The notes beneath the pieces were generated by a model. The model saw only the letters and a program-made list of their open reading frames with translations. It was not told the origin of the DNA and searched no databases. Below, in pieces: positions 37,768 to 42,957 of a stretch of DNA of 64,000 bases. The stretch lies in the NCBI RefSeq assembly GCF_056712565.1, contig NZ_CM160072.1, one strand, 5' to 3'. The position numbers and the translations under genes are program-made. Each line of letters begins with the position of its first letter. The stretch's first letter is position 1.

Positions 37768-39123
37768 ATGATGTCTGCACCCAAAATTACATTTATCGGC
37801 GCTGGTTCGACGATTTTCGTTAAAAATATTCTTGGTGATGTGTTCCATCGAGAGGCGCTGAAAACGGCGCATATTGCCCTGATGGATATCGATCCCACCC
37901 GCCTGGAAGAGTCGCACATTGTGGTGCGTAAGCTGATGGATTCAGCAGGGGCCAGCGGCAAAATCACCTGCCACACCCAACAGAAAGAAGCCTTACAGGA
38001 TGCTGATTTTGTGGTGGTGGCATTTCAGATTGGCGGTTATGAACCTTGCACGGTGACTGATTTCGAGGTCTGTAAGCGGCATGGTCTGGAACAAACCATT
38101 GCCGATACGCTGGGGCCGGGCGGCATTATGCGTGCGCTACGTACCATTCCGCACCTGTGGCAGATTTGCGAGGACATGACGGAAGTCTGCCCCGATGCCA
38201 CCATGCTCAACTACGTTAATCCAATGGCGATGAATACCTGGGCGATGTATGCCCGCTATCCGCATATCAAGCAGGTAGGGCTGTGCCATTCGGTGCAGGG
38301 AACGGCGGAAGAGCTGGCGCGTGACCTCAATATCGACCCGGCTACGCTGCGTTACCGTTGCGCAGGTATCAACCATATGGCGTTTTACCTGGAACTGGAG
38401 CGCAAAACCGCCGACGGCAGTTACGTGAATCTCTACCCGGAACTGCTGGCGGCTTATGAAGCAGGGCAGGCACCGAAGCCAAATATTCATGGTAATACTC
38501 GCTGCCAGAATATTGTGCGTTACGAAATGTTCAAAAAGCTGGGCTACTTCGTCACAGAATCGTCAGAACATTTTGCTGAGTACACACCGTGGTTTATTAA
38601 GCCAGGTCGTGAGGATTTGATTGAGCGTTATAAAGTACCGCTGGATGAGTACCCGAAACGCTGCGTCGAGCAGCTGGCGAACTGGCATAAAGAGCTGGAG
38701 GAGTATAAAAACGCCTCCCGGATTGATATTAAACCGTCACGGGAATATGCCAGCACAATCATGAACGCTATCTGGACTGGCGAGCCGAGTGTGATTTATG
38801 GCAATGTCCGTAACGATGGCTTGATTGATAACCTGCCACAAGGATGTTGCGTGGAAGTGGCCTGTCTGGTTGATGCTAATGGCATTCAGCCGACCAAAGC
38901 CGGTACGCTACCTTCGCATCTGGCCGCCCTGATGCAAACCAACATCAACGTACAGACGCTGCTGACAGAAGCTATTCTTACGGAAAATCGCGACCGTGTT
39001 TACCACGCCGCGATGATGGACCCGCATACTGCCGCCGTGCTGGGCATTGACGAAATATATGCTCTTGTTGACGACCTGATTGCCGCCCACGGCGACTGGC
39101 TGCCAGGCTGGTTGCACCGTTAA
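37768..39123 (+). CDS. melA: Alpha-galactosidase MelA (GH4, NAD/Mn-dependent)
   Basis: 451-aa ORF MMSAPKITFIGAGSTIFVKNILGDV..., Rossmann GAGS motif. Confidence 0.93.
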   Translation: MMSAPKITFIGAGSTIFVKNILGDVFHREALKTAHIALMDIDPTRLEESHIVVRKLMDSAGASGKITCHTQQKEALQDADFVVVAFQIGGYEPCTVTDFEVCKRHGLEQTIADTLGPGGIMRALRTIPHLWQICEDMTEVCPDATMLNYVNPMAMNTWAMYARYPHIKQVGLCHSVQGTAEELARDLNIDPATLRYRCAGINHMAFYLELERKTADGSYVNLYPELLAAYEAGQAPKPNIHGNTRCQNIVRYEMFKKLGYFVTESSEHFAEYTPWFIKPGREDLIERYKVPLDEYPKRCVEQLANWHKELEEYKNASRIDIKPSREYASTIMNAIWTGEPSVIYGNVRNDGLIDNLPQGCCVEVACLVDANGIQPTKAGTLPSHLAALMQTNINVQTLLTEAILTENRDRVYHAAMMDPHTAAVLGIDEIYALVDDLIAAHGDWLPGWLHR

Positions 39124-39770
39124 GGGGTAATCGCTTCCGGCGCTCTGGTGATTAAGCCAAAGCGCCGTAGCTGGCGGCAATGAAAGCGGGCGAGGAATAT
39201 CACCGTCGTTAATGCGCCCAGTAGTGCGCAGAACATATCGGATTGCGTATCCCACGGGTCGCCTTGAGTACCGAGAAAATCATCTGCGCCCTGGCCCATT
39301 GCCAGCGCTGCCCACCACTCGATTAACTCATACATCGCGCTTATCGCCAGCGCGACACAACAGACCAGAAACGCCACCATTTTACGCCCGCGAACGTACA
39401 TCCCGCGCACGAGGATCTCTCGTGCCACCAGTGCAGGCACCAGCCCCTGGAAAAAATGCCCCAGTTTATCATACGGATTACGGCTCAACCCCAGCCATTC
39501 CTGCACCTCAAAACCAACGGGGACTTTCGCGTAGGTGTATTGCCCGCCGACCATCAGGATGATGGCGTGAAAGAAAATGAGCGTATAGAGCAGCGGCGTT
39601 AACGGGTAACGTTTAGCGGTGGCAAGCAGTAGCGGCACGACAATAATCACCGGTGTCACTTCCATCAGCCAGGTGAGTTTGTCATGGGCCGAAATGCCGG
39701 TATAAATCAGGATTAACGTTAGCGCCAGTGCGCCGGTGTTAAGAATTAACGGCTTGAGTGTGCGGGTCAT
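39120..39770 (-). CDS. yjdF: Inner membrane protein YjdF
   Basis: 216-aa hydrophobic ORF; its stop codon overlaps the melA stop; true start may be a few codons downstream. Confidence 0.8.
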   Translation of the reverse strand: MTRTLKPLILNTGALALTLILIYTGISAHDKLTWLMEVTPVIIVVPLLLATAKRYPLTPLLYTLIFFHAIILMVGGQYTYAKVPVGFEVQEWLGLSRNPYDKLGHFFQGLVPALVAREILVRGMYVRGRKMVAFLVCCVALAISAMYELIEWWAALAMGQGADDFLGTQGDPWDTQSDMFCALLGALTTVIFLARFHCRQLRRFGLITRAPEAITP

Positions 39771-39856
39771 GGTGAGTTCGCAAGTCAGGGAAAATACTGA
39801 CTATTGACCAGTAAGCGTGAAATTACAATCGCAAAAGAGGTGGCCCAGGGGGATCA

Positions 39857-39876
39857 CCTGGCAGCATGCTGCCAGG
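39857..39876 (-). terminator. Perfect 20-bp palindrome downstream of fumB, probable terminator
   Basis: cctggcagcatgctgccagg, 17 nt after the fumB stop. Confidence 0.45.
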
Positions 39877-39892
39877 CGCTGGGCCGAAGAGG

Positions 39893-41539
39893 TTACTTAG
39901 TGCAGTTCGCGCACTGTTTGTTGACGATCTGCTGGAAGAAGTCGTTACCTTTGTCATCGACCAGGATAAACGCCGGGAAATCTTCTACTTCGATTTTCCA
40001 GATAGCTTCCATACCCAGCTCCGGATAAGCGACGCATTCCAGATGCTTGATGCTCTGCTGCGCCAGTACCGCCGCCGGACCGCCGATGCTACCGAGGTAG
40101 AAGCCGCCGTGTTTATGGCACGCGTCGGTAACCTGCTGGCTGCGGTTACCTTTCGCCAGCATGATCATGCTGCCGCCGTGGGATTGCAGCAGATCCACGT
40201 AGGAGTCCATACGACCTGCGGTGGTTGGGCCAAGTGAACCTGATGGATAACCGGCAGGCGTTTTCGCCGGACCCGCGTAGTAGATCGGGTGATCTTTGAT
40301 GTACTGCGGCAGTTCTTTACCGGCGTCAATCAGCTCTTTCAGCTTGGCGTGTGCAATATCGCGACCCACGATAATGGTGCCGGTGAGCGACAAGCGGGTG
40401 GATACCGGGTATTGCGAAAGCTGGGCAAGGATCTCTTTCATCGGGCGGTTAAGGTCGACTTTCACTGCTTCGCCTTCACCTGCCTGACGCAGTTCTTCTG
40501 GAATGTACTGGCCTGGATTGTGTTCCAGTTTTTCGATCCAGATACCTTCGCGGTTGATTTTCGCTTTAATGTTACGGTCAGCGGAGCAGGAGACTCCCAT
40601 GCCTACCGGGCAGGATGCGCCGTGACGTGGCAGACGGATAACGCGGATGTCGTGCGCGAAGTATTTACCGCCAAACTGCGCGCCAAGACCGAGTTTCTGG
40701 GCCTCTTCCAGCAGTTCCTGTTCCAGCTGGATATCGCGGAACGCCTGACCATGTTCGTTCCCTTCCGTCGGCAGTTCATCGTAATAGTGAGCGCTTGCTA
40801 ACTTGACGGTTTTCAGGTTGGTTTCCGCAGACGTACCGCCAATCACAAACGCGATATGGTACGGCGGGCAGGCTGCAGTACCGAGGGTACGCATTTTCTC
40901 GACGAGGAAGTTTTTCAGTTTGCCGGGCGTCAGCAGGGCTTTGGTTTCCTGGTAGAGATACGTTTTGTTGGCAGAGCCGCCGCCTTTAGCGACACAGAGG
41001 AATTTGTACTCATCGCCATCTACCGCGTACAGGTCGATTTGCGCAGGCAGGTTCGTGCCGGTGTTGACCTCTTTATACATGTCCAGCGGCGCGTTCTGTG
41101 AATAGCGCAGGTTATCTTCGATATAGGTGTTATAGACGCCTTTCGACAGCGCTTCTTCATCACCGCCACCGGTCCACACGCGCTGACCTTTTTTACCGAC
41201 GATGATCGCGGTGCCGGTATCCTGGCAGGTCGGCAGCACGCCTTTAGCGGCGATTTCGGAGTTTCTTAAGAATTGCAGCGCCACGTACTTGTCGTTTTCG
41301 CTGGCTTCTGGATCGTGAAGAATAGCCGCAACCTGTTTCTGGTGTGCCGGGCGGAGCATGAAAGAAGCGTCGTGAAAGGCTTGCTGCGCCAGCAGGGTCA
41401 GGGCTTCTGGTTCCACTTTCAGGATGGTTTCGCCGTCGAAGTCGGCAACGCTAACGTAATCAGAAGTGAGTAGATAGTATTCGGTATTGTCTTTCCCCAT
41501 CGGGAAAGGTGCCTGGTAGATAAAGGGTTTGTTTGACAT
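39893..41539 (-). CDS. fumB: Class I fumarate hydratase FumB (Fe-S, anaerobic)
   Basis: 548-aa [27 protein letters not shown]... Confidence 0.93.
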
Positions 41540-41616: not shown

Positions 41617-42957
41617 TTATAAGAACCCGTACATCGCGGCGAAGATCCAGCCGAAGACGCACGATACGCTCACACCAATCAACCCCGGCAGAATAAAGCT
41701 GTGGTTGATGACGAAGCGACCGATGTGGGTGGTGCCGGAACGGTCAAACTGAATCGCTGCCAGATCGCTCGGATAAGTCGGCAGGATGTAATAACCGTAG
41801 CAAGCCGGTGCTGAAGCCACGATGTATGCCGGATCAACGCCGATCGCCAGCGCGACCGGAACAATCGCCGCCAGCGCCGCAGCCTGAGAGTTTACAAACT
41901 TGGAAACCAGCAGCAGAACAATGGCATAGGCCCACGGATACTCTTTCACCATTTCACCCAGTACGCCCTGAATTTCAGACATATGCGCACCGAACATGGT
42001 TTCAGCCATCCATGCGATACCGTACACCGCCACGATGGCGATCATACCGGAACGGAAGACTTCGTTTTTTGAGATAGACGCGGGATTGGTTTTGGTCAGG
42101 ATAATAATCAGCGCCCCGGTCAGCAGCATAAACATCTGAATAACCAGTACCATCGACAGCGGTTTGCCGCCGAAGGATGGACGCAGGTCCGAATCAGCAC
42201 CAAGAAGGGCGACTACAGCGATTGCCCCGAGGAAGATCCACATTGCCAGCCAGTTGCTTTTCGGCAGTTTTTTATCCAGCAGCGTCGCGGTATCACCGTA
42301 AACATACTCACGGTTTTCCGGTACGGAGATGAATTTTTGGAACTCTTCGTCTTTATCCAGATCTTTACCGCGGAACCAGCTGAAGATACCGATCGCCAGG
42401 ATACCGATTAACGTCGATGGAATGGTGATTGCCAGCAGGTCGAGGAACTCAAGATGGCGACCATCAAAGGTGACATTACCCAGCATCGCAACCAAAGATA
42501 CGACCGCAACCGACACCGGACTGGCGATAATCCCCATCTGTGCACCGATAGAACTTGCCGCCATCGGACGTTCCGGACGGATGTTGTTCTTAATAGCAAC
42601 GTCGTAGATGATCGGCAGAATGGTGTAAACCACATGACCCGTACCGCAAAGAATGGTCAGCGTACAGGTCACAAACGGCGCGACAATTGAGACATATTTC
42701 GGGTTGCGACGCAGCAGCTTCTCGGCAATTTGCAGCATGACATCAAGACCGCCCGAAGCTTGCAAGGTCGCCGATGCCGCCACCACCGCAATGATAACCA
42801 GCATGACATCAACCGGTGGTTTACCTGGCTGAAGGTGGAAGACGAAGACCAGAATGACCAGACCGATACCGCCTAATAAACCCAGCGCGATACCCCCCTT
42901 TCTGGCACCATAAAACAGACATATCAGTATTATGATAAGTTGGATAGTAAATAACAT
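41617..42957 (-). CDS. dcuB: Anaerobic C4-dicarboxylate transporter DcuB
   Basis: 446-aa polytopic membrane ORF. Confidence 0.93.

Follow-up and report, generated by a model that had tools for sequence, protein, structure and literature searches.

In the window, by which we mean the whole stretch of 64,000 nucleotides that was analysed, the genes dcuB, fumB and yjdF follow one another on the minus strand, and a short palindrome lies in the 130-nt spacer between fumB and yjdF. The genes and the palindrome are placed as follows.

41617-42957, minus strand: dcuB, upstream of fumB
39893-41539, minus strand: fumB, encoding a 548-aa class I fumarate hydratase
39895-39893, minus strand: fumB stop codon TAA, 7 nt before the base of the hairpin described below
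39857-39876: perfect palindrome CCTGGCAGCATGCTGCCAGG of 20 bp, with two 10-nt arms 0 nt apart, which makes up the tip of the hairpin (inner 8-bp stem and CAUG loop)
39120-39770, minus strand: yjdF, encoding a DUF2238 membrane protein

The genes dcuB and fumB are described as a bicistronic operon (PMC6393394). The window is E. coli DNA: a 261-nt query across the site matched 5401 of 5426 complete E. coli genomes, in which the flanks are annotated as fumB and yjdF, in agreement with the gene names given in a preliminary description of this DNA; the RefSeq annotation holds no entry for the hairpin site. The yjdF start codon ATG (39770) lies 86 nt beyond the palindrome, and the distance from the hairpin to the start of yjdF is about 70 nt. 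Compared with K-12 (L001 2240-2500), a REP-containing segment of about 120 nt between the convergent genes melB and yjdF is missing at 39060-39200 of the window. The yjdF stop here overlaps that of melB (39120-39123), and the yjdF reading frame comprises 216 aa, a form also present in other Escherichia (L006-L008), versus 209 aa in K-12.

A check of the sequence bore out the perfect 20-bp palindrome at 39857-39876 that had been reported in the preliminary description, together with its spacing of 17 nt from fumB, in the sense that 16 nt stand between the TAA and the palindrome, which begins at the 17th nucleotide. Perfect palindromes of at least 20 bp occurred in 17 of 200 first-order Markov randomisations of the window, and their analytic expectation is 0.06 per 64 kb. 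By itself, the 20-bp palindrome is just marginally non-random; its length alone being marginal, the case for its reality comes from context and conservation. A further perfect palindrome of 16 bp, CAGCATGATCATGCTG, lies at 40157-40172 inside the fumB coding sequence, where it encodes SMIML, and has CAGCATG in common with the 20-bp palindrome. It is probably due to chance, since 16 bp was the commonest length of the longest palindrome in shuffled windows.

Structure of the hairpin and its place after fumB

The preliminary description had covered just the inner part of the structure, as the palindrome is nested in an outer inverted repeat, GGCCCAG/CTGGGCC. Read on the fumB sense strand, the complete hairpin starts 7 nt past the fumB stop and is composed of the following parts.

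39842..39885, minus strand: complete hairpin GGCCCAG-CG-CCUGGCAGCAUGCUGCCAGG-UG-AUCCCC-CUGGGCC, 44 nt, with 17 bp, a 4-nt loop, a 6-nt 3' bulge and about -31 kcal/mol
39879..39885, minus strand: 5' arm of the outer stem, GGCCCAG, conserved more widely than any other part (Escherichia, Citrobacter, Salmonella)
39842..39848, minus strand: 3' arm of the outer stem, CUGGGCC (CTGGGCC in the DNA)
39849..39854, minus strand: unpaired 3' bulge AUCCCC, within the conserved UGAUCCCC(C), which holds a GATC site
39833..39841, minus strand: weak, interrupted U-tract ACCUCUUUU after the hairpin, with a tail score of 0.57

The inner stem of the E. coli hairpin is formed by CCUGGCAG and CUGCCAGG around the CAUG loop, and the sequence right after the hairpin reads ACCUCUUUUGCGAUUG. 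Folding of the 130-nt spacer gave an energy of -43.5 kcal/mol (z = -4.1), and none of 200 shuffles was as stable.

A scan for YjdF over the genomes of 100,044 species yielded 57 loci, among which the order dcuB-fumB-yjdF was found only in Escherichia, Citrobacter and S. enterica subsp. arizonae. All loci with this order show a hairpin with a GGCCCRG/CYGGGCC base directly after the fumB stop. The same architecture after fumB was observed in five Escherichia, ten Citrobacter and two Salmonella lineages, with z values from -2.2 to -7.1, and the distance from the stop to the hairpin is 7-10 nt across the three genera. S. enterica subsp. enterica (L063 4148-4235) has no yjdF, and its fumB is followed by GGCCCGG-CGUUCUC-CCGGGCC, a REP element and the convergent melB; subsp. 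arizonae (L017) retains yjdF. In about 30 non-syntenic loci of Klebsiella, Raoultella, Enterobacter, Kluyvera, Lelliottia, Buttiauxella, Serratia and others, where unrelated genes precede yjdF, the hairpin is absent upstream of yjdF. Being present without yjdF in S. enterica and absent before the non-syntenic yjdF genes, the hairpin is a property of the fumB 3' end and not of yjdF. The fumarase paralogues of Klebsiella and Enterobacter stand in a different operon context and were used as contrast only.

A GGCCCGG hairpin before yjdF in one Klebsiella metagenome-assembled genome was examined as a candidate and rejected, as it is the U-tailed terminator of an unrelated gene; the 506-aa membrane protein encoded there would, as read from its sequence, be a TctA-type transporter. 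With the yjdF riboswitch (the Rfam yjdF motif, Bacillus), the E. coli site has the gene name alone in common: an Rfam scan of 39000-40500 at E-values up to 10 returned no relevant match, just a chance hit elsewhere, the E. coli YjdF is a DUF2238 membrane protein, and the hairpin is that of fumB.

Compensatory changes and growth of the hairpin

Seventeen sequences were aligned, and the 17-pair structure was tested on 268 stem cells, 98.9% of which hold standard pairs, versus 20-45% when the 3' partners were slid by 1-3 columns. Changes on both sides were found in 6 of the 17 pairs (5 of 10 for the inner helix), and none of 500 shuffles reached the observed pairing or covariation score. In the same columns, the inner stem reads CCUGGCAG/CUGCCAGG in Escherichia and CUGGACUGAC/GUCAGUCCAG in Citrobacter. 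Compensation is also seen within genera, with an outer-stem A-U pair of E. coli being replaced by G-C in E. albertii and E. whittamii, and one Citrobacter pair varying by species between U-A, C-G, A-U and U.G. The 12 non-Watson-Crick cells are all transitions, 9 of them giving G.U on the fumB sense strand and 3 on the antisense strand, an asymmetry that comes down to about four events versus two or three and is thus made up of too few independent events to assign the strand. Judging from these alignments, the hairpin behaves as a conserved structured RNA would be expected to, its pairs apparently being kept via compensatory substitutions, a pattern that template switching can mimic.

The conserved UGAUCCCC(C) is kept in Escherichia and Citrobacter, and its counterpart is the loop UGAUCUUA of the short S. 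arizonae hairpin. Owing to this match, the long inner stem looks as if it had been added within, or lost from, an ancestral loop. In many Citrobacter, the bulge sequence is repeated as AUCCCCCC directly after the hairpin.

Compensatory changes in DNA inverted repeats can come from template switching without selection on RNA (PMC8794818), and one alternative, therefore, is a neutral DNA quasi-palindrome, in which an ancestral small hairpin has grown and has been kept symmetric by replication template-switching, the covariation being mutational and not selective. Template switching is known to create and maintain hairpins (PMC8794818) and to operate in E. coli (PMC7202029), and several features of the locus would fit it well. 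Every base pair between the E. coli arms is a Watson-Crick pair, and the tip shows nested additions by lineage, from a 7-bp stem in S. enterica over 10 bp in S. arizonae and 17 bp in E. coli to about 20-30 bp in Citrobacter. Two of 5385 E. coli records, STLEFF_47 (L002 443-480) and one other, carry a variant in which UGAUCCCC is changed to CG by a T-to-C exchange and a 6-nt deletion; the hairpin is thereby turned in its entirety into a perfect 38-bp palindrome of -40.6 kcal/mol, which has the signature of a templated correction. This allele probably arose by a quasi-palindrome template-switch event, as we infer from the two genomes.

As an account of why the structure is there, a purely neutral quasi-palindrome is nevertheless unlikely. 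The hairpin is kept at the same spot, 7-10 nt past the stop, in three genera, despite the proneness of long palindromes to deletion, and of 5413 E. coli records, 5008 have its 58-nt segment with an identity of 99% or more, whereas the adjacent spacer shows several polymorphisms among six strains. Template switching thus explains the perfect tip palindrome of E. coli, but not the retention of the hairpin in the three genera. The fumB site resembles the described quasi-palindrome template-switch hotspots (PMC7202029; PMC8794818) in being an imperfect inverted repeat with a natural variant that was perfected in one multi-nucleotide step. Unlike an explanation of the site, however, such hotspots concern the evolution of a sequence and not its function, and the event proposed here is derived from two genomes. 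A mutational origin and a function of the RNA are not mutually exclusive, and the perfect symmetry is most simply viewed as a by-product of the evolution of a DNA inverted repeat, with template switching homogenising the arms, and not as a code for recognition by a protein.

Two further variants concern the arms and the tip. In the K-12 hairpin, one G of the outer 3' arm is missing, and in Citrobacter sp. MGH106 (L016 2848-2919) an extra nested palindrome, CCCAAUAGUUGG...CCAACCAUUGGGG, is found at the tip of a 72-nt structure, an apparent further step of growth at the apex.

Symmetry, promoter-like motif and repeats upstream of yjdF

Between the hairpin and yjdF, the spacer holds one more element, which belongs to the context and is no part of the hairpin.

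39800..39828, minus strand: putative promoter-like motif of yjdF, TTGTAA-17 nt-AATAGT, with its start 14 nt past the hairpin

The motif TTGAAT/TTGTAA-17 nt-(A/G)ATAGT, with UUUUCC behind it, recurs upstream of yjdF in most of the about 30 non-syntenic enterobacterial loci, where the genes ahead of it vary (serA-like, tRNA and transporter genes) and where it is located about 35-40 nt before the yjdF start (about 35-70 nt in L022-L061). A consensus promoter scan called no promoter in the spacer, the yjdF motif reaching 8 of 12 with a cut-off of 9. From the sequence comparison, TTGTAA-17 nt-AATAGT is likely to be the promoter or a regulatory site of yjdF, and yjdF appears to have a promoter of its own, independent of fumB.

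Overlapping the putative -10 element of yjdF, a small hairpin, AGUCAG-UAUUUUCC-CUGACU, was noted at 39783-39802 (minus strand). It is possible only in transcripts begun upstream of it, for example in read-through from fumB. Its Citrobacter version, AGUAAU...AUUACU, differs by two compensatory pairs; in K-12, one of the pairs is a G.U.

The preliminary description had suggested that the palindrome could be a dimeric protein-binding site for yjdF, a proposal that the comparison of loci does not sustain. A symmetric DNA operator for a dimeric regulator of yjdF would agree with the perfect two-fold symmetry and with the centre of the palindrome, about 73 bp upstream of the putative yjdF start site, a distance from which an upstream activator could work. 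On the other hand, about 30 non-syntenic yjdF loci lack the palindrome and yet have the promoter-like motif, and the palindrome is present after fumB where yjdF is missing. The sequence of the arms has been replaced by compensatory substitutions, half of the inner-helix pairs being changed on both sides, and a half-site that is not conserved because its pairs show compensatory changes argues against an operator. In addition, the symmetry of the DNA is broken by a G.T position in E. albertii and E. whittamii, and a site with a single copy in the E. coli genomes marks no regulon. We therefore regard this alternative as very unlikely. In an unsystematic comparison, we know of no operator consensus that the palindrome fits. 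A sigma-54 reading of TGGCA..TGC was rejected, the spacing from GG to GC being one base short of the -24/-12 consensus.

Still less probable, to a degree that makes it hardly credible, is an origin from a dispersed repeat or mobile element (a REP/BIME-like unit, for instance, or the end of a transposon), of which the site would be a copy or remnant. Like REP/BIME units, the fumB hairpin is a GC-rich extragenic palindrome able to act as an exonuclease barrier at mRNA 3' ends, and a true REP adjoins the small hairpin in S. enterica; unlike them, however, it occurs in a single copy and does not resemble the REP consensus. The genome search for the same palindrome, which the preliminary description had proposed, gave one site per E. 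coli genome (a median of one place with megablast, and two with sensitive BLAST, which we take for the two strands of the same palindrome), and in the 64-kb window no second copy was found, even at three mismatches. Neither 50,697 phage records nor 2.9 million viral contigs contained a match, the "plasmid" matches were only non-mobilizable E. coli records of 0.09-4.9 Mb, and Rfam gave no match.

The 3' end of the dcuB-fumB message

As the first of its two suggestions for the palindrome, the preliminary description had named a terminator hairpin of fumB, and this stands in part: position, strand, stability and conservation after fumB in three genera are in its favour, but the canonical U-tract is missing. 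Of the two elements of an intrinsic terminator, the GC-rich stem-loop past the stop codon is present on the sense strand (17 bp, about -31 kcal/mol), and the U-tract of about 7-8 nt abutting the stem is not (tail ACCUCUUUUGCG, score 0.57). The bases abutting the stem are A, C and C, and the U-tract is displaced by 3 nt. With a tail score and a combined discriminant of the d'Aubenton-Carafa type, all ten fumB hairpin variants had tail scores of 0.4-1.1, whereas three canonical terminators of these loci scored 4.0-5.5; the discriminant was negative in all ten and positive in all three controls. A consensus terminator scan did not call the fumB hairpin. A CUUU(U) patch, 3-9 nt past the stem, is semi-conserved, being found in nearly all Escherichia and Citrobacter sequences; after the Salmonella hairpins (GCGUUAUCGG, GUUCCGAUCC) no U patch is present. 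The 3' end of the fumA type and the Klebsiella paralogue have textbook terminators composed of a hairpin and U7.

In spite of this, the hairpin might act as a non-canonical yet effective Rho-independent terminator of dcuB-fumB, in which the strong 17-bp stem offsets the short displaced U-tract and release takes place at UCUUUU, 4-9 nt past the stem, perhaps with NusA or NusG. We consider this possible but rather improbable. The correct position and strand, the great stability of the hairpin and the CUUU(U) patch of nearly all Escherichia and Citrobacter sequences speak for it, and Dar and Sorek note that mixed or transitional terminators with reduced U content are likely to exist (PMC6061677). 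Against it stand the A, C and C next to the stem, with a tail score far below those of the controls, the negative discriminant in every variant, the failure of the consensus scan to detect the hairpin, the Salmonella versions without a U patch, and the U7 terminators of the fumA-type and Klebsiella paralogues, which show what the canonical form looks like in this gene family. Similar to a canonical Rho-independent terminator, the fumB hairpin is GC-rich, lies after the last gene of the operon and is followed by a few U residues; it differs in that its U-tract is short and 3 nt off the stem and that it fails the tail-score discriminant and the scan in every species. Some intrinsic termination may still be left room for by the semi-conserved CUUU(U) patch, and the term "terminator" should be read loosely here, for a stem-loop that defines or protects a 3' end and is at best a weak terminator.

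For E. coli transcripts ended by Rho, it has been described that steady-state 3' ends lie just past stable stem-loops without U-rich tails, with a mild enrichment of C over G downstream and trimming by PNPase and RNase II (PMC6061677). Being stable, placed at the end of the coding region and devoid of a U-rich tail, the fumB hairpin has the traits of such protective stem-loops (PMC6061677). Over 70-80 nt downstream, the C/G ratio of the RNA is 1.45-1.9 for Escherichia and Citrobacter, the latter with C6 runs, and 1.05 for S. enterica, where a REP follows; the composition in the first two genera is suggestive of a rut-like region. Along with the protective stem-loops of Dar and Sorek 2018 (PMC6061677), the fumB hairpin is stable, GC-rich, situated just past the stop and U-poor, and the mild C-over-G downstream in Escherichia and Citrobacter may be a further resemblance; unlike typical ones, it is longer (17 bp plus a bulge) and has the next promoter within 14 nt, and Rho dependence and trimming would here be deduced from these resemblances.

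The reading that we favour, and hold to be probable, is that the palindrome represents the apex of an RNA stem-loop, 44 nt long, within the 3' UTR of dcuB-fumB, and that this stem-loop sets the end of the message and protects it, perhaps with some weak intrinsic termination. From the sequence, the transcript is predicted to fold into a very stable hairpin as RNA polymerase exits fumB. The U-poor ACCUCUUUU would then lead to an inefficient release of the polymerase, if to any, and polymerases reading through would be halted further on, plausibly by Rho on C-rich, G-poor RNA. PNPase and RNase II might subsequently trim the RNA in the 3'-to-5' direction up to the hairpin, by which the steady-state 3' end would be set and the fumB message protected. 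At the same time, the hairpin would separate the transcription of fumB from that of yjdF, whose apparent promoter begins 14 nt further on. With about 70 nt to the yjdF start, a Rho-dependent stop must fall in yjdF or its promoter, which is awkward for this proposal.

Published 3'-end data were searched as well. The Adams 2021 Term-seq supplements have no entry for the 3' ends of fumB, yjdF, dcuB and melB, and the TERMITe supplements have none for fumB and yjdF, probably because dcuB-fumB is an anaerobic operon. A literature search on fumB with yjdF, terminator or ProQ yielded nothing on the fumB 3' end.

A bolder extension, which we regard as quite doubtful, takes the conserved UGAUCCCC(C) bulge to be specifically recognised, by a 3'-UTR-binding protein (ProQ, for example) or in the loading of Rho, and would have it tune the stability of the fumB mRNA or gate read-through into yjdF under anaerobiosis, the locus being in parallel a datable series of a hairpin built from the tip outward by template switching. 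The idea is suggested by the retention of UGAUCCCC(C) from Escherichia to Citrobacter while the surrounding stem turns over.

The hairpin is real, conserved and of an ordinary kind. With it, the dcuB-fumB operon gains a defined, conserved structure at its 3' end, and a likely independent promoter of yjdF is placed just downstream; the idea of a yjdF operator at the palindrome is corrected as well. Beyond annotation, the finding has little import. As a worked example, the site illustrates a U-poor 3' stem-loop that is conserved across three genera with compensatory changes, and the natural "perfecting" variant is a reminder that covariation in inverted repeats may be mutational as well as selective. 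Mildly unusual are only the conserved C-rich bulge and the visible evolution of the hairpin by template switching.

A different arrangement was encountered on a metagenome contig of 556 kb (L067), which carries dcuB and a fumarase gene with 93% identity to FumB; behind them come a U-rich terminator, fumC and tus. This gene order is presumably that of the fumA side in E. coli, and the contig is a recombinant between the fumB and fumA loci or else a chimera assembled from the paralogues.
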